A stretch of DNA of 64,000 nt from a virus. Lineage: Duplodnaviria > Caudoviricetes. The notes below the pieces were generated by a model. It saw only the letters and a program-made list of their open reading frames with translations, was not told the DNA's origin and did no database searches. The translations under genes and the position numbers were made by a program. The stretch is from IMG/VR virus record IMGVR_UViG_3300021185_003040, positions 59,788-123,787 of that record; one strand, written 5' to 3'. Every line of letters begins with the position of its first letter. The stretch's first letter is position 1. Of this stretch, positions 958 to 34,823 are shown piece after piece.

Positions 958-3006
958 TTACCAGCTAGCGGCCCATACAAATTCAAAGTTATGTTTCTTA
1001 CAAAACTTTTCAATCATATCTGAAATCTTAGCTTGGGCAGCTTCGTACTTAGCGTAATCTCTTCCATCTATAATATTATAAGCACTTTCACCATATTCAT
1101 CAGGATGTCTTAATTCTCTTGGCTCGTCAGTCTTATAATAAACTTTCTTTTCAGCTGTTCTAATATAAGGCATTCTTAATTCTATTCTTCTATGTGCTTT
1201 TCTTCCGCTTGCCTTTGCGATGTCATATTGCTTTTCGATTCTTGGCTTTAATCTAGTCCATTCGGCTAATATTTTATCATTAGCTTTAAAACCTGCTAAA
1301 ATAGTTTTCATGTCAAATTCTACTCCGTTTACTCTTTTGTAATCTTTGAAAACTCCAACTACATCATCCATAAATTTATCAAAGCTAGAAATAGATTGAT
1401 ATGATCCATGGACAATTCCCATACCCCATTCATCTTCTACCTTTCCAGTTGATACTTTTTTGGTTCCATTGAATAATTTTGCAAATGAATAATTAGGTCT
1501 ACGAGTTGAGTTGTTAGAAGAAAACTTAAATACTTCATGTTTCCATGATTTTCCTCGAAGATCAATAGCTAAACACAAATTACCTCCATAATTCCATTCT
1601 GATCTATAAACTCTACATCTAAATTGAATTTTTGGAAATTCCTTTTTTAAACGCTCTGCCATTTGTAAACCATTACCGAAGTTAGATTCTCTTTTGTATG
1701 CTTCTTTACATTCTTTAGATTTTCTAGCAATAGCTAAAACCTTACTTATTGTATAGTATGTTTCTGAATCGAATATTTCATCATCTGTTTCTTTATCTAA
1801 AATAACATCTTCATTAATAGATTTTAAATGAGTCAGTTTAGTGGATGTTGATTCTGCAAATGCTTCAATATCCCATTGGATTCTTTGCATTGGATCATCA
1901 CCTCTAAAGTTTTTCTCAACCCAATCAATAAGACCTGGTTCGAATTGGGCGTTTTGTGCCATATCATAGGCATTCTTCCAACCGTCGTTTGATGCAACGT
2001 CTTCTAACCATTGGTCATATTTCCTTTGAGTCCATCTTACTTTCTTAACAGCTTTCTTATGAGGACCAGCTCCTAATGTTGACTTTACAGTATTGTAGTG
2101 TTCTGGACCTGCAAATACGCCTTCTGCCCATTCTTGATCTCTTTTATTACCGTCCCAATATTTAATTTCTTTTCTGAATCTTCTTAGTGAATAATTACCA
2201 CCTTCAATTTGTTTACGCTTTGTTACTTCTCCTTGTCTGTAACCTATTTCAATCTTCTTTTCTTCGGCAGTTTTAGGATCCATTTCGAAATGTAAAGATT
2301 TTACTAAATCTCCAATACCATCAAATTTACCTTCAGTAACTACTGATTCATCTAAACCTAATGATTTATTAACTAGATCTTCAATAACAGTAGAATAATC
2401 GTCCTTCAAAGCCCATTTAATTGTTTGACCTTGACTTCTTGCTTTTTTGTTTATCCATTTAAGATGTGTTGCATCAGTAAGAAACTCGGAAGCTTCTTTT
2501 GCAATTCTCTTTGGATCCTTTTTCCATTCTTCAATAGTAGTGCCAAAGTTATTACCGTATGTAGAACCATTAGTTCTTTTAAGGTTATTGATTCCACCAA
2601 TCTTAATGTATATGTCATTATTAATAGGCATTGCTTCAAAGAAAACTACATCTCTTTCTTCTGGGTTGTTTTCACCAGATAATTGATCAATAGCATAAGT
2701 ACTATGAACTCTCCAAGTAGGTTCGCCCTTTACATTGTATGCTGCTGAGTGCGTATCTCCACCAAATTCAGAAGCTTTTAACTTATATGCTTTAGCTTCA
2801 TTGGTGGATCCGAAAGATTCAAATGATATAATGTTTTTCATTTCGCGTTGTTTCTTTTTATTTCTCTTCTTCTTATACTCTTCTTCGGCATCTCCCTTTC
2901 CGGCTGGAATATCCCCTGATCCAACTGATGTTTCAGTTGGTAAAGAGACTTCTCCCATTCCGGCCATATCGCCAAGTGATAAGTTTTCGTTTTCGTTTAA
3001 TTCCAT
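958..3006 (-). CDS. Putative internal head (poly)protein
   Basis: 682 aa; internal leader-like MKNIISFESFGSTNE|A; further sites DESVVTE|G and KSINE|D. Confidence 0.55.
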   Translation of the reverse strand: MELNENENLSLGDMAGMGEVSLPTETSVGSGDIPAGKGDAEEEYKKKRNKKKQREMKNIISFESFGSTNEAKAYKLKASEFGGDTHSAAYNVKGEPTWRVHSTYAIDQLSGENNPEERDVVFFEAMPINNDIYIKIGGINNLKRTNGSTYGNNFGTTIEEWKKDPKRIAKEASEFLTDATHLKWINKKARSQGQTIKWALKDDYSTVIEDLVNKSLGLDESVVTEGKFDGIGDLVKSLHFEMDPKTAEEKKIEIGYRQGEVTKRKQIEGGNYSLRRFRKEIKYWDGNKRDQEWAEGVFAGPEHYNTVKSTLGAGPHKKAVKKVRWTQRKYDQWLEDVASNDGWKNAYDMAQNAQFEPGLIDWVEKNFRGDDPMQRIQWDIEAFAESTSTKLTHLKSINEDVILDKETDDEIFDSETYYTISKVLAIARKSKECKEAYKRESNFGNGLQMAERLKKEFPKIQFRCRVYRSEWNYGGNLCLAIDLRGKSWKHEVFKFSSNNSTRRPNYSFAKLFNGTKKVSTGKVEDEWGMGIVHGSYQSISSFDKFMDDVVGVFKDYKRVNGVEFDMKTILAGFKANDKILAEWTRLKPRIEKQYDIAKASGRKAHRRIELRMPYIRTAEKKVYYKTDEPRELRHPDEYGESAYNIIDGRDYAKYEAAQAKISDMIEKFCKKHNFEFVWAASW

Positions 3007-3009
3007 ATC

Positions 3010-3327
3010 TTAATATTCAAATGGTGGAGTTCCATAATCACCTTGTTCGATGCCATACCATACTCCTGATACTTGTAAATACCACCATCCATATTTAGTG
3101 TCGTCTACTACTTTAAATTTCTTAGGTAATTTAACAGATTTTTTTGGAGCTCTAGCAATATACTTTAAAACTGGAACACCATCATCCCATGTTTTTTTAG
3201 TAGATCTTGCTTGAACTGATTGTCCATCTGAAAACGCATCAAATGCTTTTGCATCTTCTATTTCATCTGCTAATAAATCGATAGCTGATTCATTAATGTA
3301 TTGTTCAAATAATTTTACTTTTTTCAT
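3010..3327 (-). CDS. Putative internal head protein
   Basis: N-terminus MKKVKLFEQYINE|S resembles the T4 capsid-targeting sequence MKTYQEFIAE. Confidence 0.6.
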   Translation of the reverse strand: MKKVKLFEQYINESAIDLLADEIEDAKAFDAFSDGQSVQARSTKKTWDDGVPVLKYIARAPKKSVKLPKKFKVVDDTKYGWWYLQVSGVWYGIEQGDYGTPPFEY

Positions 3328-3328
3328 T

Positions 3329-4663
3329 TTACCAAACTATGTTTTTATTATCCCATTTAGCCATTCTTTGCTTAAGCTCTAGTGCTTTACGCTTAGCATC
3401 TCTCATATACCAAGAACTTGATGAACCGAATTTTTCTTCTTCAGTTTTCATATTAACGTATGCTGAAACATATCCTTGATAATCTGACAATATATTTGCA
3501 ATATAATTGGTTAAATCTCTAGGTCTAATTTCTCTTCCTTTAGGGTCTTTTCCTATTGTTAATTCGTTATAGTTTCCTAATTCTTTTTTAGCTAAACCAG
3601 CCATTAAGAATTGGTGTGCATCTTCGATAATTTCTTTAACTTTCTTGTCTATTTTATCTGGGTTATCAGCTTTCTTCGCAAGAATATCGTTATACCTTGT
3701 TAAGTTATCCTCTTTGATTTTCTTAGGGTTTGTAAGTGCAGTAGCTCCAGATTTTGCCTCTGCTCTTGCAGATGTCTTATCATCGGTAGATAAAGAAGCT
3801 CTTAATGTGTCTAAATTAATAATGTAACATTCGTCAGACATTTCCGCAATTCTTTTAATGTTACCTAATCCCGTTCCACTATATTGGTTGTGTGATTTGT
3901 TAACACCGACAGTATCTTTAGATCCAGGGTATTTACCCATGTTCTTAAGTCTTCTTGTGTTTTTCTTACCACCTATTGTGTCGCTGTTTCTATTCCATAT
4001 TGAATCGTTCTGAAACATTTCATTTTTTCCATTAGAAACAGCTAATAAACAATTTCCAGGAATCATTTCAACATATCTTCCGGAAGAAGGAGCATATTCA
4101 TTTTCTTTTTCATTTCTAGAAATCCAAAATACAATTACGTTTCCGAATGTTTTTGCTTTCTTATAAACTTCAACTGGGTTGCTATTAGAAATTATCATAT
4201 CATCGGTAACTTTATCTAGTGCTACTTTAGCAAGACCGTATATACCTTTAATTAATTCCTTACCACCTTTTTTGATGTCTATTAATCCTCTTAACTTGGA
4301 AGAAGCTAGAGCTTCATTAAGTTTTAAAGATTCAGTTGCTCTGTATTTTGCAAATTTACCCTTTTTAATTGTTTTAACTAATTCAGCTTCGCTATCGTCA
4401 ATATTGCCATATACATCATTATGTGTTGCTGCGTTTACTATTTCACCAGCATCACCAATAAAATAAGTTCCTCCTGCATATTCGTCTCCATCCATATCTA
4501 GATCAAAACCACCGGCATCTAATGAATTTTTAGAAATTGTGAATTCTTTTCCGTCTGCTTTTGAAAGAGCAGCTGCTAATTTTTTTGCTATTTTAGCAGT
4601 ATCTTTCTGCTTCATAACCTTTGCTTCATTGATAAAATTATCGAAGTTAGTATATAGTTTCAT
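3329..4663 (-). CDS. Putative internal head protein, two modules
   Basis: N-terminus MKLYTNFDNFINE|A; internal TESLKLNE|A. Confidence 0.55.
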   Translation of the reverse strand: MKLYTNFDNFINEAKVMKQKDTAKIAKKLAAALSKADGKEFTISKNSLDAGGFDLDMDGDEYAGGTYFIGDAGEIVNAATHNDVYGNIDDSEAELVKTIKKGKFAKYRATESLKLNEALASSKLRGLIDIKKGGKELIKGIYGLAKVALDKVTDDMIISNSNPVEVYKKAKTFGNVIVFWISRNEKENEYAPSSGRYVEMIPGNCLLAVSNGKNEMFQNDSIWNRNSDTIGGKKNTRRLKNMGKYPGSKDTVGVNKSHNQYSGTGLGNIKRIAEMSDECYIINLDTLRASLSTDDKTSARAEAKSGATALTNPKKIKEDNLTRYNDILAKKADNPDKIDKKVKEIIEDAHQFLMAGLAKKELGNYNELTIGKDPKGREIRPRDLTNYIANILSDYQGYVSAYVNMKTEEEKFGSSSSWYMRDAKRKALELKQRMAKWDNKNIVW

Positions 4664-4687: not shown

Positions 4688-4695
4688 TATATATC
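4688..4695 (-). promoter_or_regulatory. Class-2 (putative late) promoter GATATATA
   Basis: Recurring motif at about 14 gene boundaries in the window. Confidence 0.6.
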
Positions 4696-4697
4696 TT

Positions 4698-7600
4698 TTA
4701 ATGTAAGGAATCATGTGCTAATTCATTAGCTAAGTCTGGATTATCATCTGTGAAATCTGATAATTCTTCGTCAGTCATTTCTTTTCCATTAGAATATTCA
4801 CCATAACTAAAGAATGCATCTGTGAAATCTGGATAATCTTTCATATCAACATCTTCCATTTCTAATGAACTAATATCTACTTTCTTTCCTTTAAATTTAA
4901 TATAATTAGCTTCGTTAATAAAAGATTCTAATGTTAAACTAACAACTGGTTTAATTCCAGTTAATATTCTTTTTCCAAATTTAGAAAGACCAATTCCATT
5001 TTCACTTACTGTAAAGTATTTAGAATTTCTTCTCATCCATCTTTTATTATCGATTGATTTTTCTTTTAGAATATTATTGAATTCTTCTTCTGTTAATACA
5101 CCATCCGCTAATGCCTCGATCATTGCGTTTCTGACTTTAGCAGTTCTACCTGAAGTTTGTGCAGGATGATTATCGGTATATCTTCTTTTTATTTGAATTT
5201 TAGATTCTCTAAGACCCGGTTTCATTACGTTTAATTCCCACCACTGTTCTAATTGGTGATAAATATTTGCACCCATGTTTGAAATCATGAAGTCAATTAC
5301 ATCATCATAATTGTCTTTTTCATCTTGATAAAAACCAGGAGTATCGATATATTCTTTACCCATTATCTTTCTAACTGCTCTTTCTGGCATAGCATCGATT
5401 TCTTTTAAAAATTCTTCGAAATCTTCATCGTTTTTAAAACCCTTAGCTTCAATAACCATTGATTCCATTAGGCCAATAGCAATCTCTCCAACTTCTCTAT
5501 CGCCGCCGTCAACATATCTTTTGTTAAGTATTGCAAATTTAAAACCATCTGCTTTTATCGTATACATTGGCATCATACTATCACTATAGTCGTATTTGTA
5601 TTTACCTGCTTTTAATTCTTTACCGATTGCAAAGAAATCTTTAGCTTTACCTACTAAATCTGCAAGATTATCTAAGTGGTCACCAGCGTCGTCCTTTTCA
5701 TTAACTAATGATTCATAAACTCCTTTTTCAATGTTCTTGATTAAGAGTTTAGCACCCTTCTTGTCAAGTTCATTTTGAATAAAGTCCATCATTTCGTTGG
5801 GATCTTCAGCATCTATACCAAATTCAGATGCTAAGTTTTGATATGCATCAAATTCCATATTAGAAATAGTGTCTTCTAAGTCTGCATACACATCTTCATT
5901 AACTGCTGATTCTACCATTACTAGCCCTATATCCTTATATGCTATTTCATGCTCTCCACCGTCTTGATCTAGTGCAAATACTGATTTATCATGCCACATT
6001 GCAGCATTGTCATCGTTATTAGAATCAGGATTATAAATGATATATTCTTTTCCGTTTCCGGTTTGAATCATTGCATCATCTGCATCTCCTAATTTTTTTA
6101 ATAATGACTTTTTAGTATACCTTTCTTCAACAGCTTCACCTGACGTATATTCAAAATCATTATATAGTGCCTTTAACCATTCTAAAAACTCTGGAGTTTT
6201 CTTCATTACTTTCTTATGTCCGTATTCTTTAAAGAATTCTTTCTGAAAAGTATCAAATGATTTGTGATTACCTATCATTTGGTGAATGTCAGACATAACA
6301 CCCTCACTGATAACTAATTTTACATCTTTGTTTTTACCAGCTACTGCATCATCTAGTTCATTTGTAAGAGCTTTCTTTTTTGCTGTTAAATCTATTAGCT
6401 GCTGTCTAGTTGCTGCTTTCTCATCACTTCCATCTTCCGCAGCGATGTATATCTTTACAATATCTTTCATCTTATTAACTGTTTCTCCAAATTCCTTTGA
6501 AATCTTGTTAATAGATCTAGCTTCTAATATATTAGATTCTTCAATGTATTCTCCTAATTCAGGATCGTCCCATCCATTAGGATCGGCTAATACCGATTGT
6601 AAATCTTCTCTTGAACCTGTCATTTCAACTTCTGGCCAATTGCCACCAGGGCCGTTCATTGTTAAAACTTTCATTTTAACATTATATTTCTTTAAAAGCT
6701 TTTTGAGTGTTTTTGATTTAGGATCTATTGCATCCATTACTACAGTAGCTTCATTTAAATTTTCGTCTAGCTTATCAAAGAATCCACCATGTTCACTTTG
6801 TAAATCTTCACCATACTTGTCGTCCCATATTTTAGCTAATTCATCTTTAGTAATTTTACCTTTATATTTTCCCATGATTTCAACATAGACACTACCATAT
6901 TCATATTCAAAATCTTCACCATAAGAAAAATCCCATGCCTTTTCAACATCTTTAATTGTAAGCTTTTTGGCTTCAGTAACCTTTGATTCATACCATCCGT
7001 TTTCGTAATCGTCATCATCTTCATAATCATCATACTCAGGTTCTTGATACCATGATTGATTTGGATCAGATTCTGCTTCTTCAGTAAAGTCATGTCTTTT
7101 CCAATTAAATCTTGGATCTTCAACTAATGCAGGGAATAATGTCTTTTTCTTTTTATCTTTGGTCTTTATTTTACCGAATGCTAAATCAATACCAAGTTGT
7201 CTTAATTCTTTAAATGAACCTTTCATTGTTTTAACATCTTCTTCAGTATATCCATTCATTGTAGCAACAAGATCATAATAATCCATTCCACCAAATTCAC
7301 CATATCCTTCATAATCCTTTTCCGTCCACTTGTTACCCATATTATCATACATAAATACTGTAATCATGTTCTGTCTTTCAGAACCTATTTGTGTGTTTGT
7401 ATCGGATGTAAGCCATGAAAATTGACCTTCAACTATCATCTGTTCATGTAACAATTGAGCACCAGTCGTTACAATGTTTAAATAGCTTTCAGGAATTCCA
7501 TTTACAAAGTTATGTAATTCTGGTTCGAAATCTGGCATACCACATGCATATCTTGGATATGTTGCTCCTTCTGTATTTACAAGAATACTCATTCCATAAT

Positions 7601-7916
7601 ACTCTCCAAGCTCACCTGATTCAGTGTTACAATATAATACAAATACCTGTGGCACTTGAACTTTAAAGTTAGATTGTAATGGATATTCGTTATGACATCC
7701 TAATTCTTTAGTAGTGTATACGTCTAAGGAATGTAATTCTTTATCATATTTAGTTAATTCTCTATATGGAATAGAAGCTCTTTGGTTAAATAGATCTCCC
7801 CAATAAGAAGGCTTTCTCAAGGAATATTTCCCAGAAACCTTTTTGTATACTTTATATAAATCAACGTTTTCGTTCATTGAATTTACAAAGCTTTCGAATG
7901 TTTTTTTAGTGCTCAT
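4698..7916 (-). CDS. Putative multi-module internal head polyprotein
   Basis: 1072 aa; leader MSTKKTFESFVNSMNE; about 12 recurring (ES)xx[NT/hydrophobic]E junctions. Confidence 0.6.
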   Translation of the reverse strand: MSTKKTFESFVNSMNENVDLYKVYKKVSGKYSLRKPSYWGDLFNQRASIPYRELTKYDKELHSLDVYTTKELGCHNEYPLQSNFKVQVPQVFVLYCNTESGELGEYYGMSILVNTEGATYPRYACGMPDFEPELHNFVNGIPESYLNIVTTGAQLLHEQMIVEGQFSWLTSDTNTQIGSERQNMITVFMYDNMGNKWTEKDYEGYGEFGGMDYYDLVATMNGYTEEDVKTMKGSFKELRQLGIDLAFGKIKTKDKKKKTLFPALVEDPRFNWKRHDFTEEAESDPNQSWYQEPEYDDYEDDDDYENGWYESKVTEAKKLTIKDVEKAWDFSYGEDFEYEYGSVYVEIMGKYKGKITKDELAKIWDDKYGEDLQSEHGGFFDKLDENLNEATVVMDAIDPKSKTLKKLLKKYNVKMKVLTMNGPGGNWPEVEMTGSREDLQSVLADPNGWDDPELGEYIEESNILEARSINKISKEFGETVNKMKDIVKIYIAAEDGSDEKAATRQQLIDLTAKKKALTNELDDAVAGKNKDVKLVISEGVMSDIHQMIGNHKSFDTFQKEFFKEYGHKKVMKKTPEFLEWLKALYNDFEYTSGEAVEERYTKKSLLKKLGDADDAMIQTGNGKEYIIYNPDSNNDDNAAMWHDKSVFALDQDGGEHEIAYKDIGLVMVESAVNEDVYADLEDTISNMEFDAYQNLASEFGIDAEDPNEMMDFIQNELDKKGAKLLIKNIEKGVYESLVNEKDDAGDHLDNLADLVGKAKDFFAIGKELKAGKYKYDYSDSMMPMYTIKADGFKFAILNKRYVDGGDREVGEIAIGLMESMVIEAKGFKNDEDFEEFLKEIDAMPERAVRKIMGKEYIDTPGFYQDEKDNYDDVIDFMISNMGANIYHQLEQWWELNVMKPGLRESKIQIKRRYTDNHPAQTSGRTAKVRNAMIEALADGVLTEEEFNNILKEKSIDNKRWMRRNSKYFTVSENGIGLSKFGKRILTGIKPVVSLTLESFINEANYIKFKGKKVDISSLEMEDVDMKDYPDFTDAFFSYGEYSNGKEMTDEELSDFTDDNPDLANELAHDSLH

Positions 7917-7936: not shown

Positions 7937-9016
7937 TTAAACTCGGTTAGGCTTTATTTTATATTTAAATTTACCTTGTGTAATAGAATATATTTGTAAT
8001 TTGCTAGTTTTTCCAGGTAATTTCTTGTAATAGTGAAAAGCTACTATTTCATGATCTTTAGACTCTATAAAAAGGAATGGAGTAGGTATATCTCCTACTG
8101 CTGAAATTACATCGTCTTGTATTTCAGTAAATGTTCTAACGGAAGGCTCAGTCTCTATTATACTTTTAATTTTTTCTGCAGTTTTAGAGTCACTTAGCTT
8201 TCCTAATTCTACGTCATTAAATTTAATTACTAATGCGCCGTTATCTTTATCTCCAGGACCTATTTTAAAATCTCTTTCACTAGAAGAAAGGGCCTGAATA
8301 TCTGTCTTAGTTAAATTTTGAATATGCTTAAATCTTTTTCCACCTACAGTTCCCCATTCATTTATCCAACCTCCACCGGCAGCCATATCTTTACCATCTC
8401 CGTCCGGGTTGATTTCTTCAATATTATATTTTACTGCGTCATATAATGCCGTTAACTTCGGTACATAAGTACTATTAATTCCCTGGTGTTTTGCACCTGT
8501 TCTCCAATTTTGTAACATGCCCTTTGACATTTGAGCTTCTTTTAACTCACATTTACCAAGGGGTGGTTTAATTGGTGACCACCTTTCATTATATAATTCT
8601 AAGTCAGTATCGGCCGCACCTCCACCTATTTTTATATTTTCTACAATATACGCTAGCATTATTTCTCCAGCACCAATTCCATTATCGTCTCTTCCAATAT
8701 TAAACAATTCGTTTGCTTCGCTTTTATTTAACATTAAATATTGAAAAACTACTCCGAATGTATCGTCATCCATTTTAGAAAGCCATAACCTACCATCAGG
8801 TTGTTGTTTAACATCCTGTGTTGAAGTAAACTTAACACCTTGCCATGGACACTTATTCTTTTTAAATGTTCTATTAATTGAATTAAATAAATTCTGTTGG
8901 GCAGCCTTACTGCCGGTTGATGCAACTCCAATATAGGATTCTATAATTAATGCTTCATTTTCAGCATTGGTTTTTGCAGCACTATGTAGTGCTCTTTCAA
9001 AATCGTACCTATCCAT
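7937..9016 (-). CDS. Putative PD-(D/E)xK-fold nuclease
   Basis: GxGE...D.DL...ELK arrangement (GAGEIML, DTDLEL, CELKE) resembles a restriction-endonuclease-like active site. Confidence 0.45.
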   Translation of the reverse strand: MDRYDFERALHSAAKTNAENEALIIESYIGVASTGSKAAQQNLFNSINRTFKKNKCPWQGVKFTSTQDVKQQPDGRLWLSKMDDDTFGVVFQYLMLNKSEANELFNIGRDDNGIGAGEIMLAYIVENIKIGGGAADTDLELYNERWSPIKPPLGKCELKEAQMSKGMLQNWRTGAKHQGINSTYVPKLTALYDAVKYNIEEINPDGDGKDMAAGGGWINEWGTVGGKRFKHIQNLTKTDIQALSSSERDFKIGPGDKDNGALVIKFNDVELGKLSDSKTAEKIKSIIETEPSVRTFTEIQDDVISAVGDIPTPFLFIESKDHEIVAFHYYKKLPGKTSKLQIYSITQGKFKYKIKPNRV

Positions 9017-10880
9017 TGTTTTCTAAAAATTGTTTAAATGTTAATAATGATTCAGTGACTTCATTTGATTCTGAAGCACCTACTGAATCTTCTAATTTTT
9101 TCTTAAGTTCACCATACATTTTATGTAAGGCCTTTGGTGTTGTAGACTTAAATAGTTTTTCATCTCCGTCTAACATTGCATTTCTAACCTGAGTCGCTGA
9201 AATATTATTGTCTGTTCTTGGAATTTCAAATAATCCAAAATCACTCCTAACTCCAAGATCTTCTCTATAAGAATCTTTATTTACTTGGAATCCGTAAGTT
9301 TTCATTCTATCGCTTCCTGTTCCCCATAATACGGGTTCATAAGTTGGTCTCATTGCATTGAACATTGTATCAATACCTCCGGTTGGAATTACAAAGATTT
9401 CTTTTAAGAATGGATATTGTTTTTGAACCGCCTTAAACATATCTAATTGTGTCTTCTCATCATAAGGTCTTTTAAATGCATCTTCCTTTTTCTTATTCTT
9501 TGCTTTTACTAATAAAACAACCACAGGATATCCATTTTCTTTGTGTATAGTTTCTAATACTTTAGCATGTCCAAGTGTAAATGGTTGGAATCTACCAACA
9601 AACATATTTACTAATTCTCCTCCTTGTTCAGGATGATCTACTTTAAGTGCTTCATTTAAATTAACACTTGTCTTTACTTTATTATGTAATATGAAATTAT
9701 TAAAGTCGTATATGGAATTTTCATCGGTATTCTCTACAAATACTTTCTTATCTATAGTTTCTACTATTTGATTTAAATGCTCTAACATTTCTGCATTTAT
9801 GATATCGCTTTCCTTGCTTCTCTTTTTTCTAAAAGAACCTAAAGTTATTTTAAATAATTCTGCAAGTATTTCGTTTTCAACATAAGAAAGAGTGGTCTCG
9901 TTCTTAATGTATTTAGTATTTAGTTTAAAGGAATCTGAATCTGCAAAATCAGCTGATTCAAAGTTAACACCAATAAACTTAGCAGAGTGTTCTTTAACAT
10001 ACGTATTAAACATCACTGACATTAATTCAATATATCTCCAGTCTGCTGTTTCTTCATTTAGTTGAATGTCTTTCATTTCAAATGTAGAAATAAATTCAAT
10101 AAGACCAGCAATAGTAATTTGATACATGTGGCTTGATCTCTTATTTTCACTAACAGTTCTTGTAAAATCTTCTAATTTAAAAGATCTAGATTTTTTCTCA
10201 TCAATAAAAGAAACTATTAATCCGTCAATTTCTACTTCAAAGTCTTCATTTAACGTAGGAGAAATTGCATTTGGATTAAATGTCTTAATCATCTTTTGGG
10301 TAAAAGGTAATCTTGCATCTGTATTTGGATCATAATCAAATGCTTCAGAAAACTCCTTATCTGACATAGATAGAACAGTTATTAATTCTTCTTTTTGCAT
10401 TTGAGATAACATACCATCAAATACAATGCTAGGTCCTTGAACCTCTAATATCTTTGACCATTTATTTAATATAACTGGATCGCTAATTGTTTTTTTAATC
10501 TTACCTGATTCATTCATAGTTTGAATGTGAGTAAGTATTAAATTGTTTTTAGGCAGTTTAGTATATTTATATTCTGACACGTTTAATTCAGGTAAATATT
10601 CAAAACCAAATTTCCAATCATGTGGCATTTGTTCCTTTATACTAGGATCTAGACTTTGGATGTGCTTGACACCTGTTTCATATAAACCTACTATTGTTCT
10701 GTCTATCATGTTCATTCTAGAATCTCCAGATTTGTAATATTCAAATTTAGTCTGGTTTCTTCTAACGTGAAATGAAGCTCCTTGTATTTTTTCAGTTACT
10801 AGAACCCTGCTATTCAACATATCTTGAAATGCATTGATATTAGTTTCCTGAAATACTTGTCTTAGTTTTTTAAGTGCCAT
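9009..10880 (-). CDS. Fusion of an ATP-dependent-ligase-like N-terminal domain and a HIGH-family nucleotidyltransferase (NadM/NMNAT/cytidylyltransferase-like)
   Basis: N-terminal TEKIQG, FGFEY, DGLIV, FKL (ligase motifs I/III/IV/V-like); C-terminal GRFQPFTLGH, GSDR and ISATQVR. Confidence 0.7.
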   Translation of the reverse strand: MALKKLRQVFQETNINAFQDMLNSRVLVTEKIQGASFHVRRNQTKFEYYKSGDSRMNMIDRTIVGLYETGVKHIQSLDPSIKEQMPHDWKFGFEYLPELNVSEYKYTKLPKNNLILTHIQTMNESGKIKKTISDPVILNKWSKILEVQGPSIVFDGMLSQMQKEELITVLSMSDKEFSEAFDYDPNTDARLPFTQKMIKTFNPNAISPTLNEDFEVEIDGLIVSFIDEKKSRSFKLEDFTRTVSENKRSSHMYQITIAGLIEFISTFEMKDIQLNEETADWRYIELMSVMFNTYVKEHSAKFIGVNFESADFADSDSFKLNTKYIKNETTLSYVENEILAELFKITLGSFRKKRSKESDIINAEMLEHLNQIVETIDKKVFVENTDENSIYDFNNFILHNKVKTSVNLNEALKVDHPEQGGELVNMFVGRFQPFTLGHAKVLETIHKENGYPVVVLLVKAKNKKKEDAFKRPYDEKTQLDMFKAVQKQYPFLKEIFVIPTGGIDTMFNAMRPTYEPVLWGTGSDRMKTYGFQVNKDSYREDLGVRSDFGLFEIPRTDNNISATQVRNAMLDGDEKLFKSTTPKALHKMYGELKKKLEDSVGASESNEVTESLLTFKQFLENNG

Positions 10881-10890: not shown

Positions 10891-12261
10891 TTATCTTCCG
10901 TACTTTATGATTCCCATCAGCTGATTGATAGCAGCAAAAGTACCTGTTAGTTTCATAGTCTTTCCTTTATATACAAAAACTATTCCTTCAGTTGGTATGA
11001 TAGATTCTACTCCTCCAATTCTATCTAATCTCTCTAGTTCTTTCATTACCTTTTCGATCTGAGTAACGCTTCCATCTTTTTTGATCTTTTCAGATTCTGA
11101 TCTAATTTGATTATGTAGTCTTTGCATCTCTTTGTCTGGATTTGCAGCTACAAAATTAGAAGCATTCATAAGAATTATAGACCCTAGTTCTAAAAATAAA
11201 TCTTCAAACGGTCTAATGTTTTCTTTATATTTCTTTTTAACATCTTCTTTGTCAAATTTCTTAACAGAAGCAGCTTCATCTTTTCCTATCTCCTTTGCAA
11301 GTGATCTCATATTTAAAGACTTTTTATCTCCATAAGCCCATCTTAATAATAAACCTTCCTTATAGTCTTGTTGTAAATCGGGGAAATTTGCATCTATTGT
11401 TTCTCTCCACCACATTTCATGATATCTAGAAACTTCGTCACCGTCTGTTAAGTTATAACGATCTCTTAATTTTTCAATCTGCTTTATAAATTTAGCTTGA
11501 TTTTTATCAAAATTAATATCTTTACCTAGTTTTAAAATCTGAGGAGGAATTATTGTAAATGTCTTTTGAACATCGGCATCTACTTCCTTTAAAGCTTTGA
11601 CTAATTCTCCTGCTATTTTTCTAGATCCTGTAATATTACCATTCCCATCAGTTTCTTGAATATCGTGAAATTGAAGAACATCTCTTTCGTAATAGATTAC
11701 ATTTGGGTTTTTAGAATAGATTAATTCTATATTTATAAAATCTTTACCGTCATTAAATATGGACTGATCTTTAATTTTTGGAAGAGCTTCATTTAGATCT
11801 TTAGCTGCAAACACGTATGTTTCTCGCACTAAAGGTACCTCATGCTTTTCAAACATTTCTATAATACCGTCTAAATCAACGGGACTAATTAATTGACCTT
11901 TATTTCTAGAAAACATCGTAACTCCGTTTTTTACGGTTGCTAATAGATTTTGACCGTCTGTTTTTTCAGTGGCTACCTCTTCAAAGTTTAATTCTCCTTG
12001 AAGACCAGACGTTACGATCTTTTTAAAATCTGCGAATGTTAAATCTTTTTCATCGAAAGGATGAGACATGTGACCAGCTGCACCGCCTTCTAAGATTAAT
12101 TCTTCTTTAAGTGTATTGTATTTTTCAACGATATATTCATCAAATGATAAAACTTTACTCTTATTTTCACTCATATAATGTGCAACATATTCCTCTCTGG
12201 TCATGCCATGTGCATCTGCGTGATGTTGAATAAAATCTACGAAGTTGTTATTTAGTTCCAT
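10891..12261 (-). CDS. ATP-dependent ligase-like nucleotidyltransferase (conserved T4-like phage family, possibly DUF6267-related)
   Basis: LILE|GGAAGHMSHPFD, TEKTDGQN (KxDG), EGIVF and KLTG. Confidence 0.6.
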   Translation of the reverse strand: MELNNNFVDFIQHHADAHGMTREEYVAHYMSENKSKVLSFDEYIVEKYNTLKEELILEGGAAGHMSHPFDEKDLTFADFKKIVTSGLQGELNFEEVATEKTDGQNLLATVKNGVTMFSRNKGQLISPVDLDGIIEMFEKHEVPLVRETYVFAAKDLNEALPKIKDQSIFNDGKDFINIELIYSKNPNVIYYERDVLQFHDIQETDGNGNITGSRKIAGELVKALKEVDADVQKTFTIIPPQILKLGKDINFDKNQAKFIKQIEKLRDRYNLTDGDEVSRYHEMWWRETIDANFPDLQQDYKEGLLLRWAYGDKKSLNMRSLAKEIGKDEAASVKKFDKEDVKKKYKENIRPFEDLFLELGSIILMNASNFVAANPDKEMQRLHNQIRSESEKIKKDGSVTQIEKVMKELERLDRIGGVESIIPTEGIVFVYKGKTMKLTGTFAAINQLMGIIKYGR

Positions 12262-12328: not shown

Positions 12329-14455
12329 TTATAAATATCTATCGATAAATTCTTCTTTGCTACCAACAAATGATCTAGTCTTTGGGCCAAAAAGAACAAT
12401 TTCAGCACCTTTTGATTTAAGCCAATCTGCGACTTTTTGAGCTTTTTTCTTATCAGCTGATAACCATACTGTGTCAAATTCAGAACCGTGAGACCTTTGC
12501 ATTACAATACCTCCTTTTTCATTTGTAAATTTAAACTTATCTCCAAGAGCAACACTTACTTTAATATTTTTATCAAAATTCTTTTTATGATTCTTAAAAG
12601 AATATGCTAAAGCACCTGAGTAACTTTTAGTGTCAGTTGTAAATTCATCTAAAGATGTAGTAGTACCTTCATAAATATTTGATTCAAATGCTGGAACTAA
12701 TCCAGTTTCTCCGTAGATATCTGCCATCATCCATTTTTTAGAACCTTCATCCCATAAATAAACGAATTCTGCACCACCTTCGTAATTTGCATCTTTAATA
12801 TATTTGTTAATATTCTTAACATTACCTTTCATCAGATTAACATCTCCGCCATAGAAATTAATTTTCTTAACGTCTTTATCTAAACCTGAATTATCTCCAT
12901 TTTTAAGAACAAAATCTACATTTTTACCACTTTTAAAGGTTGATTTAATAATAGGCAACATGTTTTCAGGATATGAATCATAGTGAGTATATACTGAAGT
13001 AATATTTCCTTTCTTGTCTATTTTACCAAATTGACCTCTAGTTCCTTCATTAATTACATAATTGATTACTTCGTTAAATTTAGATTCTTTTAAAGAAATT
13101 TCTTCTTCAGTTAATTGAAACTTAACTGATTCTTCTACTGCGTTAAATCCTGCTAATAATTTTTCAGCAAGTTTAGATTCACCAATAGATTCTAAATATA
13201 GAGCAGTGCCTTCAGCAACTCCAATACCTGACCATCCGGCAGCATTTGAAATTCTAGAATAATACTCATCTAATATCTGTGATATTTTCTTTGCTCCTAC
13301 TATAATAGCTTGTTTACCAAGAGTTAAAGGATTAACAGTAACACTTCCTAATCTTCCTTTGATAATTTTTTCAGTAGCTGTTCTTTCTCTATGGAAATTA
13401 GCATCAGTTAATGCTTCAGCATAAATATATTTAATAGCTCCTAAGTGAGAAATTTTATCAGCTGTTAAGCTTCCTAGTTCTGCAAATATTTTATTGTATT
13501 GAGTTAATACTTTCTTTGCATCTCTTTTATATTTAATATCTAAGGCCTCATTCATTAATGATTCTCCTAATCCCCAGTAATTTGCGTAATCGTATTCAAC
13601 TGGGAATATACCTAAATCACCTTCATCACCTTCTTCACTTTTAACAATTTTAGCAAGATAGTAATCTCCCTTTGCAGTATCTTCATATCCGTATGAATCT
13701 GCATCTGATCCCATTTCTTTTTTAAATTGTTTTGATATCTTTCTCCAATTATCGATAGCGATTATTTCAACTTCACTTCCAATTGAATTTTCAGTAGTAT
13801 CTCCTACTTTAAATTTAGCTTTTTCAGTAACTAAAGATTCTGAAAATTCTTCAATATGTTCCATATCGATTTCATCTTCTCCCTTTAATTCTTTTTGTAC
13901 TTCTTTAGACTTTACTAATTTTGAAAGATCTTTCATAGTGATTTCTCCATCAATGAAGTCAGCTAGTATATAGTATTGATTAGCAGAAAGTCCTTCACTG
14001 TCTCTAAAATCACCAATTTCTTCAATTGCTGCTTTAGTAACGGTCTTAGCTTCAGTAATCACTGATTCGCTTAATGAATTTCTTAGACCACAGTGTACGC
14101 ATTCTACCGTTCCGTCCTTGTCAATTTGCTTATATAAATGTCCTTTTTTATTAGTACATTTTGGTTCGTCTGATTCAGTAACTTCTTCTGATGCAGTAAC
14201 CTCTTCTACCTCTACTTCTATTTCAGCGATTTCTTCTTCTGAAACATCTCCAAATATTTTTGAGATAATTGATTCTTTCTGATCTTCTTCTAAACCTTCG
14301 AAAGAAGTTAATCCTAATTCATCTAGAATAGCAGCTATTTTACCAACTGATTCTTGTCTTTTTAAATTGTTTTCTTCTCTAAGTTTACTAACAGATTCCT
14401 GTTTTCTAATCTCTGTAAACGATTTAAATGAAGAAATTTTATTAACTTTTGCCAT
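12329..14455 (-). CDS. Putative multi-module internal head polyprotein
   Basis: 708 aa; leader MAKVNKISSFKSFTE; junctions SESVITE|A, SESLVTE|K, GESLMNE|A, YVINE|G and FESNIYE|G. Confidence 0.6.
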   Translation of the reverse strand: MAKVNKISSFKSFTEIRKQESVSKLREENNLKRQESVGKIAAILDELGLTSFEGLEEDQKESIISKIFGDVSEEEIAEIEVEVEEVTASEEVTESDEPKCTNKKGHLYKQIDKDGTVECVHCGLRNSLSESVITEAKTVTKAAIEEIGDFRDSEGLSANQYYILADFIDGEITMKDLSKLVKSKEVQKELKGEDEIDMEHIEEFSESLVTEKAKFKVGDTTENSIGSEVEIIAIDNWRKISKQFKKEMGSDADSYGYEDTAKGDYYLAKIVKSEEGDEGDLGIFPVEYDYANYWGLGESLMNEALDIKYKRDAKKVLTQYNKIFAELGSLTADKISHLGAIKYIYAEALTDANFHRERTATEKIIKGRLGSVTVNPLTLGKQAIIVGAKKISQILDEYYSRISNAAGWSGIGVAEGTALYLESIGESKLAEKLLAGFNAVEESVKFQLTEEEISLKESKFNEVINYVINEGTRGQFGKIDKKGNITSVYTHYDSYPENMLPIIKSTFKSGKNVDFVLKNGDNSGLDKDVKKINFYGGDVNLMKGNVKNINKYIKDANYEGGAEFVYLWDEGSKKWMMADIYGETGLVPAFESNIYEGTTTSLDEFTTDTKSYSGALAYSFKNHKKNFDKNIKVSVALGDKFKFTNEKGGIVMQRSHGSEFDTVWLSADKKKAQKVADWLKSKGAEIVLFGPKTRSFVGSKEEFIDRYL

Positions 14456-14487: not shown

Positions 14488-15996
14488 CTATATATCTCCG
14501 TCAAATTTGACTTTCTTAATACTATACTCAAATTTCTCTTGTTTATAAATTTTTTGTCTAGCTTTACTGTGTTTGTATAGGTAATTGTCCCATTCGTCGG
14601 TTCTAATGTCATCTACAAAATCGATAATTAATACAGCTTCTTTAGACTCATGCTGCCTTAGACCTCTACCAATTGACTGCCTGATGATCACCTCGGACTT
14701 AAATGACTCTGTAAAGAATATATTGTGTATTTTCTTAATGGAAATTCCAGTAGAAAATGTACCATAACTAGCTACAATAACTACTTCATCTCCTGCTTCC
14801 ATTTTCTTCTTATATTCTTCTCTAATATCTTTATCAGTTCCTCCATCTACATAAAAAACTCTTTTATCTGAGTTTTGGCGAAGTTGTTCGTATATTTTTT
14901 TACCATGTTCTATCCTATGAAACAGAACCAGAGAGTTTCTAGGAACCTTGCCAACGACATTACATATAAAATTAAGTCTACCAAAAGAATTAATAATGTA
15001 ATTTTGTTCTAGTTGAAAAACATCCTTCCTATCATACTTATTAAATGCTAATTCTTCAAATGCCTTTTTGGCGGAATCAGGTGCGTAATTCATTTCAATT
15101 ACCTTTACTTTACATTTAGCGATGTGACCCTGGCTCTGTAAAAATGCAGCCTTAACTTCGCTAATTACAGGACCCGTTTGACTCATTAGTGTTAACTTGT
15201 CTAAAGATCCATCTTTGGGAATTGTACCCGATAAACCATACTTATATTTTGCGTTAGTGCATTTTTGTAATATAGTCTTAATAGAATTAGATTTCGCCTT
15301 ATGGGTTTCATCTACGATAACAGCGTCGAACTGTTGAAAGTATTCTTTGGGCTTTTTAACTAGGGATTGATATGTACCTATTACTACATTCCGGTCTGAC
15401 TTTATTTTCTGACCAGCATATATTTGTTGTATCTTTAGTTTTATTCTATTCTTATTATTGTATTCGTGGAAATCTTCATGAGCCTGTACAACTAAAGAAA
15501 CATTAGGAACTATAAATAGTATTTTCTCTGCTCTTTCTTTTTCTAACATATAAGCTACTGTTAAAAAGCTAATAAGTGTTTTTCCAGCAGACGTTGCTAA
15601 TTCAGCTAAACATCTCCTAAACTTTAGGATATTAAATGCAGTTTCTATTTGATAATCCCTTGGAACAAATTTGCTACCCTCAAAAAATTCTAAAGCCCAT
15701 GCTTCAAATGATTCGGCTCCTATGTTTCTATCAAATAGTCTTTGAATTCCATTAAGTTTAAGATCAAACTTATATTCCTTGCAAATAAGCATAACGTATC
15801 GCCAAAGACCAGCGGGAATCCACTTATCGTCTTTGATATATGAAACATATCCGTCCCATATTCCTTTCTTGACTAAAGGATTAAATCTCCAACTATCAAT
15901 TCTTTTAGTTAAAGATATTTTAATCTGCTCTAGTTCAAGTTCCTCTGCTTCATCAATTCGTAAGAATTGATTATCATCCGTTAGAGTTAAAATCAA
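14488..15996 (-). CDS. uvsW: UvsW-like SF2 DNA helicase
   Basis: WDG N-terminal motif, PRDYQ, ATSAGKT, DETH, GLSGT, FSTGISI and QSIGRGLR. Confidence 0.92.
   Translation of the reverse strand: MILTLTDDNQFLRIDEAEELELEQIKISLTKRIDSWRFNPLVKKGIWDGYVSYIKDDKWIPAGLWRYVMLICKEYKFDLKLNGIQRLFDRNIGAESFEAWALEFFEGSKFVPRDYQIETAFNILKFRRCLAELATSAGKTLISFLTVAYMLEKERAEKILFIVPNVSLVVQAHEDFHEYNNKNRIKLKIQQIYAGQKIKSDRNVVIGTYQSLVKKPKEYFQQFDAVIVDETHKAKSNSIKTILQKCTNAKYKYGLSGTIPKDGSLDKLTLMSQTGPVISEVKAAFLQSQGHIAKCKVKVIEMNYAPDSAKKAFEELAFNKYDRKDVFQLEQNYIINSFGRLNFICNVVGKVPRNSLVLFHRIEHGKKIYEQLRQNSDKRVFYVDGGTDKDIREEYKKKMEAGDEVVIVASYGTFSTGISIKKIHNIFFTESFKSEVIIRQSIGRGLRQHESKEAVLIIDFVDDIRTDEWDNYLYKHSKARQKIYKQEKFEYSIKKVKFDGDI
14489..14496 (-). 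promoter_or_regulatory. Class-2 promoter GATATATA
   Basis: Motif overlaps the uvsW 3' end, upstream of the 708-aa gene. Confidence 0.6.
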
Positions 15997-19097: not shown

Positions 19098-19793
19098 CTA
19101 TTCCTCAGTGGCCGACATCTTTGCTCTAACGAAGTGAGTTAAAAAGTAAGCGTCAACTAAATCGTCAAAGGGTTTTGGTATTTTTTTCGAAGGTCCAATT
19201 TCTTTCACACAAAAATCTAAAAGAGGATGTTCTGCTAAGACTTGATCTTCTAATACATTACCTAAAAAGGCATCCCATAATTGAGACTTATTCATGTTTC
19301 CTTTTCCAGCGTGTTTCTTAATTGTAGTAGGAGCAATGGTTTGAATGTCTAGGATTTCAAGTTGACTTAGCATTCTTTCTTTAAGTATTGCAGCTCCTGC
19401 AGCCATATCTATAATATTATTAGTTCCCATTTTCGAACCGAAAGAAGTTCCTTCAAAAGAAATAATATATTGCTTCTTTGTTTTTGTAATATCCGTTATT
19501 AAATTAATAATGTCATCTGCTGTTTTAGCGTATCTCTTTATCTTTGCTAATTCAACGCTTGAATAATCTGCACCATGTTTTCCCCAGTCGGGTTGATTAA
19601 TAAGAGTAACTCCCTTCAAATGAGATATGTCTTCTTGCCAAGCTCTTTCTTTCTTGGTTCCTTGGCCTTCTTTAATATAAGATATGAAATGATATTCGTT
19701 AGTTTCTTCTTGGTATATAAAAATACCTGGAGAGTTTAATGAAAAGTCTACTGATACGTAATTCAAATTAGAATGATTTTCCGATAGCAGCAC
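19098..19793 (-). CDS. RuvC-like Holliday junction resolvase / RNase H-fold nuclease
   Basis: VDFSLNSPG, FEG, PTTIKK..GKGN.NK and DDLVDAYF. Confidence 0.8.
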   Translation of the reverse strand: MLLSENHSNLNYVSVDFSLNSPGIFIYQEETNEYHFISYIKEGQGTKKERAWQEDISHLKGVTLINQPDWGKHGADYSSVELAKIKRYAKTADDIINLITDITKTKKQYIISFEGTSFGSKMGTNNIIDMAAGAAILKERMLSQLEILDIQTIAPTTIKKHAGKGNMNKSQLWDAFLGNVLEDQVLAEHPLLDFCVKEIGPSKKIPKPFDDLVDAYFLTHFVRAKMSATEE

Positions 19794-20136
19794 CTAATCC
19801 AGCGCCAACTAATCTTGAGGTTAATAAATCGTAAAAAATACCTTTTTGAATTCCTAAAACTTTAGCAACTGTTTTACCAATTGTTTTACCTAAAGCAAAT
19901 CCTGTAAGGCCACCAAATATAGAACCTAAGAAACCTTCATTTGTTAATTCCTCATTAAATCTTTCAAAATCAAACGTTCCATCTTCATTTGCGTACTGTC
20001 TAGTAAATTCTTCTAATGCCGCATCAACCTTTTGCTCTAATTCGTCAGTCCATTCTGACTGTAGAGATTCTTCTAATAGAGTAATTTCCTCTTTAGTTAT
20101 ATTCTCTTCGCTTAAGTATTCAAAAAATGTTTTCAT
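19768..20136 (-). CDS. Leader-tagged protein with a glycine-zipper, membrane-active C-terminus
   Basis: MKTFFEYLSEE leader, acidic N-half, then NE|GFLGSIFGGLTGFALG...GAGLGAAIG. Confidence 0.6.
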   Translation of the reverse strand: MKTFFEYLSEENITKEEITLLEESLQSEWTDELEQKVDAALEEFTRQYANEDGTFDFERFNEELTNEGFLGSIFGGLTGFALGKTIGKTVAKVLGIQKGIFYDLLTSRLVGAGLGAAIGKSF

Positions 20137-26701: not shown

Positions 26702-26745
26702 TACTTAAATCTTTATTTATTTAGTATATATCTTAATTTATTTCT

Positions 26746-34766: not shown

Positions 34767-34823
34767 TTATGAATAGACTCTATTTTTGTTAGAGTATATA
34801 TCTTGCTTTGTTACAGCAGAATA

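Follow-up and report, generated by a model that had tools for sequence, protein, structure and literature searches.

A putative head-cargo polyprotein in an uncultured T4-lineage phage contains a domain shared with free-standing small phage proteins

We analysed a window of 64,000 nucleotides, positions 59,788 to 123,787 of the IMG/VR record IMGVR_UViG_3300021185_003040 (123.8 kb, about 44% complete), which comes from a large, uncultured phage within the T4 capsid lineage. A 708-aa ORF on the minus strand (P0001; 12329..14455), which encodes the peptide quoted in the earlier note, is located directly downstream of uvsW. The UvsW-type helicase gene itself (14488..15996, minus strand) is context only, outside the polyprotein system. 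The surrounding genes are those of replication and recombination (uvsW, uvsY, primase and gp32), outside the head cluster, and orthologues of P0001, 525–832 aa in length, occupy the same slot downstream of uvsW in related contigs.

About 7 modules make up P0001, a putative head-cargo polyprotein. The leader MAKVNKISSFKSFTE, which is capsid-targeting-like, and an acidic stretch with abundant [ILV]xE form residues 1–94 (14174..14455), the sole part retained in all orthologues of the slot. This region is followed by a Cys4 mini-module that resembles a zinc ribbon and closes with ESVITE (residues 95–135; 14051..14173), which matched the YheV zinc ribbon weakly (E 0.032, below the cut-off) and is found near the C-terminus instead in some relatives. 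Two modules ending in ESLVTE (residues 136–211; 13823..14050) and ESLMNE (residues 212–303; 13547..13822) precede a mostly helical module (KRDAKKV...DANFHRE...AAGWSG..AEGTALYL; residues 304–442; 13130..13546). The helical module is present in most orthologues (alignment A3) and gave a confident structure model (pLDDT 87.6), for which a structure search returned no clear fold match. A short spacer with V-I-N-E as its last residues (residues 443–470; 13046..13129) then leads into a phrog_1987-family alpha/beta domain of 126 residues (GTRGQFG...YTHYDSYPE...GD...AEFVYLWD...PAFESNIYE; residues 471–596; 12668..13045), and the C-terminal module (GTTTSLDEF...; residues 597–708; 12332..12667) is missing from several orthologues. 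All of these features are on the minus strand.

Related features are encoded on the same strand of the window. A 1072-aa sister polyprotein (4698..7916) opens with a CTS-like leader, includes several ES..E linkers and contains modules that occupy the P0001 slot in other phages. The neighbouring genes for a 105-aa protein (3010..3327; leader MKKVKLFEQYINE) and a 444-aa protein (3329..4663; leader MKLYTNFDNFINE, with the promoter-like motif GATATATA 25 nt upstream) carry canonical CTS-like leaders, and a 682-aa protein (958..3006) has a single strict linker, LDESVVTE/G, where a slash here and below marks a junction or putative cut.

We then examined the borders of the embedded domain. GTRGQFGK... 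opens the domain at residue 471 (window 13045), directly behind ...NYVINE, which closes at residue 470, in agreement with the earlier claim that the module begins right after NE, and ...AFESNIYE closes it at residue 596 (window 12668). With I-N-E ending at 470 and I-Y-E at 596, both ends of the domain thus fall exactly after I-x-E. These borders fit a pattern of aliphatic P3 and Glu P1, as I-N-E/G at 468–470, a putative cut site that would release G471, and I-Y-E/G at 594–596, within the putative C-terminal cut site N-I-Y-E (residues 593–596; 12668..12679). Since the Glu-rich P0001 holds 24 [LIVM]xE in 708 aa, one isolated match carries little weight.

The domain is internal to the ORF 12329–14455 and has no start codon at its boundary, and it is thus a homologous domain rather than a free-standing member of phrog_1987, a family of stand-alone small phage proteins ('T4-LIKE GC 66' in cyanophage P-HM1). 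The earlier note had pointed to such a small phage family, and searches bore this out, with similarity far above chance. The phrog_1987 profile matched with E 5.5e-12 (segment 1–111 against profile positions 2–118 of 128), a tblastn search of cultured phages with the segment returned 33 records (21 Streptococcus prophages, 8 Prochlorococcus and 4 Synechococcus T4-like phages), and phmmer against 1.84 billion representatives gave 246 matches at E<=1e-3. Furthermore, the stand-alone ORFs align from their residue 2, as had been anticipated: the profile match begins at position 2, all tblastn rows listed begin at query residue 1, and the annotated stand-alone CDSs (114–152 aa) begin exactly 3 nt, or one codon, ahead of the match in all five examined. 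Among the 150 of the 246 phmmer matches listed, at least 36 are stand-alone proteins of 105–184 aa that start with M-[S/A/G]-T (S in 20, A in 13, G in 3), and stand-alone copies begin M-[S/A/G]-T-R. Methionine aminopeptidase removes Met ahead of a small residue, and a cut after E470 would yield the N-terminus G-T-R, matching the stand-alone proteins once Met is removed.

The two groups share T2, Y-x-H-x-D-[GS]-Y-P, G-D and E-[FY]-x-Y-L-[WF], and the columns T2, Y19, H21, D23, G50, Y65, Y96 and W105, invariant or nearly so in alignment A2 (47 sequences), are all retained in the P0001 copy. In contrast to phrog_1987 members, the P0001 copy lies within a 708-aa protein and lacks a start Met, and it does not have the F-Y-x-R-D-R-G-E stretch that stand-alone members commonly carry (judged by eye, uncounted). 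The Glu content is also far lower in the embedded group (4.0% versus 7.8% in the stand-alone group). On this homology, residues 471–596 are assigned as a descendant of free-standing 105–184-aa M-[S/A/G]-T-R proteins or as sharing a common ancestor with them. The direction may have been from stand-alone to captured; the quick-search tree is unrooted, and the split in it has an SH-aLRT of only 78. A domain with such clear free-standing relatives is a useful test case for how a gene is adapted to capture, and the pattern seen here has a putative cut site in place of Met, an unchanged N-terminus, and a loss of internal [ILV]xE and of half of the Glu.

A regular-expression search gave 94 embedded starts, from which P0125 was dropped, since its match, in an unrelated protein of low complexity, was spurious. 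As a result, 93 embedded copies in longer proteins were obtained, each directly after [I/L/V]-x-E. P1 was Glu in 93/93 and P3 was I in 60, L in 27 and V in 6, while P2 was variable (N 40, T 17, E 13, others), as were P4, P5 and P6. The module lies at offsets from 7 to 636 within its host proteins, and intermediate forms composed of a short leader and a single module also exist among relatives, such as MKNIKLFEEFINE/KPINE/GTRSQFG (138 aa). The AlphaFold2 model of the domain (pLDDT 94.3) places strand 1 at segment residues 4–9 with no N-terminal extension, so the boundary at residue 2 might be merely structural, the strand forcing alignments to the N-terminus with no processing implied. This would account for where the alignments start, but not for the invariant P1 Glu with aliphatic P3, the depletion of internal sites described below, or the leader-plus-module forms, and we regard it as very improbable.

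Comparison of related loci indicated that the junctions are also the points at which modules are exchanged. Orthologues in the uvsW slot carry the same modules in changed order, and relatives reorder, acquire and drop modules exactly at [I/L/V]-x-E-type junctions. In one related locus (L015), two complete modules are inserted precisely at junctions, with a 62-aa module directly after the equivalent of residues 136–211 and a whole additional module at the N-I-Y-E junction (residues 593–596). In eight related loci the match to P0001 ends at query residue 596/597, so that homologue boundaries and junctions coincide in close relatives, and three other loci match only residues 468–601, within a different gene. 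The upstream flanks (77) formed 15 clusters, and the downstream flanks (59) formed 32. A tblastn search of cultured phages with the whole of P0001 gave as its sole match the Streptococcus match of the embedded module, and this search thus supplied no relative of the polyprotein from a cultured phage.

The linker DNA is almost fixed as GAA TCA GTA GTT A(C/A)T GAA (TCA in 26/34, GTA in 20/34 and the following GTT in 27/34), and this near-fixity extends to silent positions. Shared descent or recombination could thus explain part of the linker conservation, and the linkers, fixed in DNA, probably double as recombination points for module shuffling. The same observation is what would be expected if P0001 were an uncut multidomain protein of the 'polyvalent' type, in which ES-h-h-[NT]-E is a linker only, kept via recombination, and the Glu is inherited and not selected. 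Phage polyvalent proteins with 2–15 domains that also occur solo are indeed described in the portion of PMC5512222 drawn on here, and the cleavage of P0001 is deduced from its sequence. However, the junction peptide is not a single one, since P2, P4, P5 and P6 vary and the upstream flanks fall into 15 unrelated clusters, and yet P1 is Glu and P3 is I, L or V in 93/93. The same motif also closes short N-terminal leaders, internal [ILV]xE is depleted in embedded copies only, and a Pfam search gave no domain typical of polyvalent proteins. We consider the uncut protein unlikely.

The depletion was marked. Within 90 embedded modules, [ILV]xE occurred 13 times versus 67.9 expected (z -7.2; none of 500 shuffles was that low), whereas 23 stand-alone proteins contained 51 versus 35.7 expected; the motif is thus about 5-fold depleted within embedded copies, with no depletion in stand-alone ones. 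Six control motifs showed no depletion. The embedded sequences are mutually related, and the test was repeated on representatives thinned by identity. At <70% identity, 43 representatives held 7 versus 34.4 expected (0/1000 shuffles), and at <55% identity, 17 held 3 versus 14.8 expected (1/1000 shuffles); at <45% identity, with 8 representatives holding 3 versus 6.6 expected, the depletion was no longer significant.

A candidate for the cutting enzyme is encoded in the same genome. PF03420 (Peptidase_S77) matched at G000:C1:34340-34681(-) with 41.7 bits (cut-off 27; E 5.2e-12). The match lies in a 682-aa ORF at G000:C1:32705-34753, in which the N-terminal ~200 residues form the protease domain and the C-terminal part looks scaffold-like (acidic, with repeats), and from this domain we identify the ORF as a T4 gp21-type head protease. 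V-N-E/S lies directly after the protease domain and V-N-E/A near the C-terminal end. The major capsid protein has I-I-E/S at residue 19, and I-x-E followed by S or A is present at this position in 42/42 distinct N-termini (79 loci). Another capsid site, G-I-N-E/A at residue 26, was rejected as a cut site because it varies among relatives, many of which have I-N-D. CTS-like leaders open 8 minus-strand ORFs of the genome. The leader of P0001 has aromatic residues spaced as in the other leaders of the genome; it ends in F-T-E, with Phe at P3, and is thus only CTS-like. The earliest canonical site in P0001 is L-R-E at residues 23–25.

The chain could also be cut in the cytoplasm or by another protease, with products that act in the producing cell and are not capsid cargo. 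P0001 indeed sits in a replication and recombination neighbourhood, and the cyanophage stand-alone homologues lie in arrays of small hypothetical genes that seem to resemble early genes of T4-like phages. However, a search for the Peptidase_S77 family in the 123.8-kb record, about 44% complete, gave the head protease as the sole enzyme suited to cuts after Glu, and it shares one ORF with a scaffold-like region. The leaders are capsid-targeting-like, and the scaffold-like region bears five similar Y..Y[LV]AE repeats. We regard cleavage in the cytoplasm or by another protease as quite improbable. The polyprotein proposed in the earlier note is indirectly supported by the invariant [ILV]-x-E before 93/93 copies, the shuffling at junctions, the predicted gp21-type protease and the depletion of internal sites.

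From these lines of evidence, we consider it probable that P0001 is capsid-loaded cargo that would be split by the protease into separate proteins, as a polyprotein version of the T4 internal proteins. In the proposed sequence of events, the 708-aa P0001 would be produced late, and its N-terminal capsid-targeting-like region would carry it into the prohead core. The gp21-type (Peptidase_S77) prohead protease would cut it there after Glu at the [I/L/V]-x-E junctions into about 6–7 separate small proteins that would remain with the DNA. By analogy with T4 internal proteins, these would finally enter the host along with the DNA. We thus infer late expression, packaging, cleavage and ejection of P0001.

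T4 IPI, IPII, IPIII and Alt have short N-terminal leaders closing in aliphatic-x-Glu, as do the 105-aa and 444-aa proteins here, and both genomes encode a gp21-family protease. In T4, as for the putative cargo here, the cargo is diverse and fast-evolving, with no role in capsid building. In the parts of PMC5694885 used here, T4 gp21 is described as cutting after Glu, with Alt processed near its two termini, at ITE-6 and LTE-619, and a length of 10–20 residues is given for capsid-targeting propeptides; the portion of PMC9026906 consulted assigns the control of processing to CTS residues 8 and 10. T4 encodes its cargo proteins individually, each gene having a leader, whereas here several unrelated putative cargo modules share one reading frame with predicted internal cut-site linkers and, unlike in T4, are reshuffled between genes and phages. 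T4 capsid targeting is known for single proteins, and in-head splitting of unrelated, swappable cargo would, if true, be a new route of multi-protein delivery.

The giant phages phiKZ, 201phi2-1 and SPN3US offer a parallel, with head-packaged proteins that a gp21-related protease cleaves after Glu at multiple positions, and their ejection or inner-body proteins carry long propeptides with redundant sites, according to the passages of PMC5694885 and PMC9026906 used here. As far as these passages go, their motif is S/A/G-x-E, versus I/L/V-x-E here, and their cuts strip propeptides from single proteins, whereas here chains of unrelated, swappable modules are found. No sequence similarity to the giant-phage ejection or inner-body proteins was found. 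Polyvalent proteins (Iyer et al. 2017, PMC5512222), in the sections drawn on, resemble P0001 in having many domains that also occur solo and extensive mosaicism, and are predicted to accompany the DNA into a new host; P0001 has about 7 modules, of which at least the domain 471–596 also occurs solo. Polyvalent proteins reportedly act mostly as a single polypeptide or are cleaved by peptidase domains of their own, and their recognisable repertoire (MuF, ART, MPTase, PBECR, methylases and others) contrasts with P0001, in which no Pfam domain was found; the P0001 junctions fit the head protease. A literature search found no printed description of such a polyprotein system.

More tentatively, and with somewhat less than even confidence, we suggest a plug-and-play delivery system in a clade of large T4-lineage phages. 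Free-standing phage genes, probably host-takeover or anti-defence genes, would be captured behind a leader into capsid-loaded polyproteins, with one short linker acting as head-protease cut site and, by virtue of its fixed DNA, as the recombination point at which cargo is exchanged between genes and phages. Each capture would be trimmed in such a way that the cut regenerates its native N-terminus, and purged of internal sites. If so, the DNA would reach the host accompanied by a ready-made set of proteins that can be re-assorted rapidly.

We also examined the sequences upstream of these genes. The motif GATATATA lies 34 nt upstream of the P0001 ATG (14489..14496, minus strand), overlapping the last codons and stop of uvsW, and it also precedes the protease-scaffold, 445-aa, 444-aa, 1019-aa and 1613-aa genes; it is thus common to P0001 and to head and tail genes. 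It was not found upstream of uvsW, uvsY, primase and two ligase-like genes. It occurs 13 times in the window, 13/13 on the coding strand, but is not enriched overall (13 versus 8.4 expected; 11/100 shuffles reach 13), and one copy lies about 100 nt upstream of gp32, both of which count against taking it as a late promoter. The T4 late promoter TATAAATA was rejected as the late signal of this phage, with 8 copies on the coding strand versus about 25 expected from composition, of which only 3 precede ORFs.

Finally, fold and function searches were carried out for the domain. Pfam gave no family for the segment, with two sub-threshold chance matches only, and none for the whole of P0001 at E<=1, and NCBIfam gave sub-threshold noise. 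A PDB profile search with A2 returned a single match (E 0.47), Foldseek against the PDB gave no match at E<=1e-3, and the best VIA-align wide score (Z 4.6) was too weak to use; several class II aminoacyl-tRNA synthetase anticodon-binding and Brix-type domains (Z 3–4) were likewise too weak as a fold identity. The BFVD search returned uncharacterised phage proteins only, and the ESM Atlas search unnamed viral clusters only. The domain is thus an uncharacterised but widespread phage domain, present in Streptococcus prophages, marine cyanophages and giant phages, and is likely an early-acting effector.

The peptide singled out by the earlier note corresponds to residues 471-596 of P0001, the 708-aa putative head-cargo polyprotein encoded on the minus strand (ORF 12329-14455) directly downstream of uvsW. 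P0001 reads ...NYVINE up to residue 470, G471 begins at position 13045, and position 12668 is the final base of ...AFESNIYE (residue 596); each edge of the interval thus lies directly behind an I-x-E. The junctions divide P0001, all on the minus strand, into an N-terminal region (residues 1-94), a zinc-ribbon mini-module (95-135), modules at 136-211 and 212-303, a helical module (304-442), a spacer (443-470), the segment studied here (471-596, hereafter the GTR module) and a C-terminal module (597-708). Other minus-strand genes of the same class were found at 3010-3327 and 3329-4663, both with a canonical leader, and at 958-3006, with one strict linker, together with a gene for a 1072-aa chain (4698-7916) whose modules occupy the uvsW slot in other phages. 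Two adjacent minus-strand genes, for 623-aa (9009-10880) and 456-aa (10891-12261) proteins, are situated between the cargo genes; the former protein carries a C-terminal cytidylyltransferase-like domain (PF01467, E 8.4e-9), and the K-x-x-G / K-T-D-G motifs of both are presumably of the ligase-type nucleotidyltransferase kind.

We then compared the GTR module with known proteins. The earlier note had likened the segment to a family of small free-standing phage proteins, and the searches indeed recovered such a family: residues 1-111 of the segment aligned with positions 2-118 of the 128-position PHROGs profile phrog_1987 (function unknown; E 5.5e-12), whereas no Pfam family matched. A tblastn search of 50,697 cultured-phage records gave matches in 33, namely 21 Streptococcus prophages and 12 T4-like cyanophages, and every match among those listed begins at query residue 1. 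In all five annotated records checked (YS387, P-HM1, S-SCSM2R, S-T4 and ACG-2014f), the CDS, of 114-152 aa, starts exactly one codon ahead of the match, so that the stand-alone ORFs align from their residue 2, as the earlier note had anticipated; correspondingly, the stand-alone start M-[AG]-T-[RK]-x-[RQ]-[IF]-G aligns with E/G-T-R-G-Q-F-G of P0001 (a slash marks a putative cut). Phmmer against 1.84 billion representative proteins gave 246 matches at E<=1e-3, of which 93 reached 1e-10 and 41 reached 1e-30, and 36 of the 150 matches listed are proteins of 105-184 aa beginning M-[S/A/G]-T (Ser 20, Ala 13, Gly 3). In Synechococcus phage S-SCSM2R (1998-2417 and 2954-4138 of its locus), the stand-alone homologue is encoded four genes upstream of uvsW, which also adjoins the polyprotein gene here, and in ACG-2014f a 'helicase' is annotated about 4 kb downstream of it; this closeness to uvsW or a helicase may be a remnant of a shared position.

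The best phmmer matches are embedded copies, in proteins whose lengths range from about 100 to 1036 aa and at offsets of 7-636. A regular expression on the first seven residues of the module counted 94 internal starts, of which one (P0125, an unrelated low-complexity protein) was a spurious match and was removed. All 93 remaining copies are preceded by Glu (P1), and three residues before the putative cut (P3) 60 have Ile, 27 Leu and 6 Val; P2 is unconstrained, with Asn in 40, Thr in 17, Glu in 13 and other residues in the rest, and the residue just after the cut is Gly, Ala or Ser. Intermediate forms, with a short leader and one module, are also present, such as MKNIKLFEEFINE/KPINE/GTRSQFG (138 aa) and MIKLTELLKEDVINE/GTR (134 aa). 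In P0075, a 181-aa phmmer match, the leader-type KLFEEFVNE/ is found internally, C-terminal of the module, indicating that targeting-type motifs can double as inter-module joints.

The neighbours of the module vary: 77 upstream flanks form 15 clusters and 59 downstream ones form 32. Among the 39 loci obtained by searching IMG/VR with P0001, the slot directly after the 502-aa uvsW gene encodes proteins of 525-832 aa that have the first ~90 residues in common and the other modules reordered. In L034, L035 and L036, the GTR module directly follows the N-terminal region, and the zinc-ribbon mini-module lies in the C-terminal part instead. Locus L015 (82% identical) contains two whole additional modules, one exactly after ESLVTE/ and carrying its own ESVINE/, the other between AFESVVNE/ and ...EEISE/GTTTS. 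In close relatives, the homologue boundaries match the junctions: in eight loci the match ends at query residue 596/597, and in three others only residues 468-601 are shared, within a different gene. In a quick maximum-likelihood tree, which is unrooted, a single branch (SH-aLRT 78, weak) separates all 36 stand-alone proteins from the 91 site-preceded copies, with much longer branches on the stand-alone side; leader-only and polyprotein copies are interleaved, at least six changes being forced by well-supported branches. A single ancient capture with extensive reshuffling afterwards would fit this, the direction being inferred.

The usual junction sequence is E-S-[VIL]-[VIL]-[NT]-E, and in 34 linkers from 14 genes its codons are nearly fixed as GAA TCA GTA GTT A(C/A)T GAA (TCA in 26 of the 34; GTA for the first Val in 20 and GTT for the second in 27). 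This points to linker DNA shared by descent or exchange, and suggests that the linker doubles as a recombination point. The main rival explanation, in which the multidomain protein stays uncut and its linkers serve recombination, builds on this but is unlikely in our estimation, and near-fixed linker DNA does not account for the junction ahead of the GTR module, at which conservation is limited to P1 and P3. If a protease cutting at [ILV]xE meets the embedded modules, their internal sites are expected to be purged, and we counted such sites against shuffles of each sequence. As a result, 90 embedded modules contain 13 internal [ILV]xE versus 67.9 expected (z -7.2; none of 500 shuffles as low), and 79 have none; 23 stand-alone proteins contain 51 versus 35.7 expected. 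No depletion was seen for six control motifs ([ILV]xD, [ILV]xK, [FYW]xE, [AGS]xE, [ILV]E and Ex[ILV]), and Glu content is 4.0% in embedded versus 7.8% in stand-alone sequences. Since the embedded sequences are related, the test was rerun on representatives with 1000 shuffles, giving 7 versus 34.4 expected for 43 sequences at <70% identity (no shuffle as low), 3 versus 14.8 for 17 at <55% (one as low), and 3 versus 6.6 for 8 at <45% (80 as low, not significant). On these counts, the depletion is a true signal, though one drawn from a limited set of independent lineages.

A candidate protease is encoded in the same genome. Its Peptidase_S77 domain (41.7 bits, above the cut-off) and a scaffold-like region form one 682-aa minus-strand ORF outside the window (G000:C1:32705-34753 of the virus record), with V-N-E/S directly after the protease domain and V-N-E/A close to the end. 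The long C-terminal part is acidic, with repeats, including five Y..Y[LV]AE repeats resembling N-terminal targeting leaders. Aliphatic-x-Glu is the rule for T4 gp21, with ITE-6 and LTE-619 as the cut sites in Alt; capsid-targeting propeptides are 10-20 residues long (PMC5694885, in excerpt), and within the targeting sequence it is residues 8 and 10 that govern processing (PMC9026906, in excerpt). The gp23-type capsid protein has I-I-E/S at residue 19, and all 42 distinct N-termini among 79 related loci carry I-x-E/S/A there, which adds little since the whole N-terminus is highly conserved. Leaders of aromatic-x-x-aromatic-aliphatic-x-Glu build start eight minus-strand ORFs in the record. A 122-aa ORF (19768-20136, minus strand) starts with MKTFFEYLSE/, a short T4-style targeting leader, and has GATATATA 26 nt upstream.

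We consider it likely, from these sequence features, that the chain is loaded into the capsid and that the head protease splits it into individual small proteins, which would be delivered together with the DNA. Methionine aminopeptidase removes Met ahead of Gly, Ala or Ser; a cut after E470 would therefore leave G-T-R..., the same end as that of the stand-alone proteins after Met removal. Such a system would work like the T4 internal proteins and Alt, but with unrelated, shuffled cargo joined into a polyprotein. It also has features in common with the ejection proteins of phiKZ-type phages, which undergo multiple processing, and, as far as the excerpted text goes, with the 'polyvalent proteins' described by Iyer et al. 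(PMC5512222), from both of which it differs in motif, architecture and domain content. A full-text search of openly accessible literature found no description of head-cargo polyproteins of this kind.

The AlphaFold2 model of the GTR module (47-sequence alignment) is an alpha/beta fold (pLDDT 94.3, pTM 0.89) that begins at the very N-terminus, strand 1 lying at residues 4-9. Against solved folds, no Foldseek match reached E<=1e-3 and the top VIA match (Z 4.6) was not convincing; BFVD matches were uncharacterised phage proteins only. T2, Y19, H21, D23, G50, Y65, Y96 and W105 (segment numbering) are invariant or nearly so, suggesting that they mark a defined site. The helical module was also modelled confidently (pLDDT 87.6), and no fold match was found for it.

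Finally, the T4 late motif TATAAATA is not used in this phage. Instead, GATATATA is a candidate promoter element replacing it in this lineage, found mostly before structural-type genes. Its 13 copies in the window, a total not above shuffles (8.4 expected), are all in the coding orientation, the majority 24-42 nt ahead of start codons (for example 4688-4695, 14489-14496, 26725-26732 and 34795-34802, minus strand). One copy, overlapping the uvsW stop, is 34 nt upstream of the P0001 ATG, and others precede the protease-scaffold, 445-aa, 444-aa, 1019-aa and 1613-aa genes; none was found upstream of uvsW, uvsY, the primase or the two ligase-like genes. Since the count does not exceed shuffles and gp32 has a copy about 100 nt upstream, co-expression of the P0001 gene with structural genes is rated only as likely.

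The source record (123,787 bp, of which the window is the last 64 kb; CheckV completeness 44%; GC 32.6%) has its closest capsid protein among deposited phages in an uncultured 462-kb phage (51.7% identity), with those of Lak megaphages next (40%). Copies of the polyprotein gene with 99% identity to that of the window are found on contigs whose capsid protein is just 84% identical, such as IMGVR_UViG_3300024320_000003 (L006, L050), suggesting that diverged phages have recently exchanged the cargo locus. Most genes have an A-rich stretch ahead of the start codon, without a Shine-Dalgarno-like GGAGG; such starts would fit a host group in which Shine-Dalgarno usage is weak, for example Bacteroidota.
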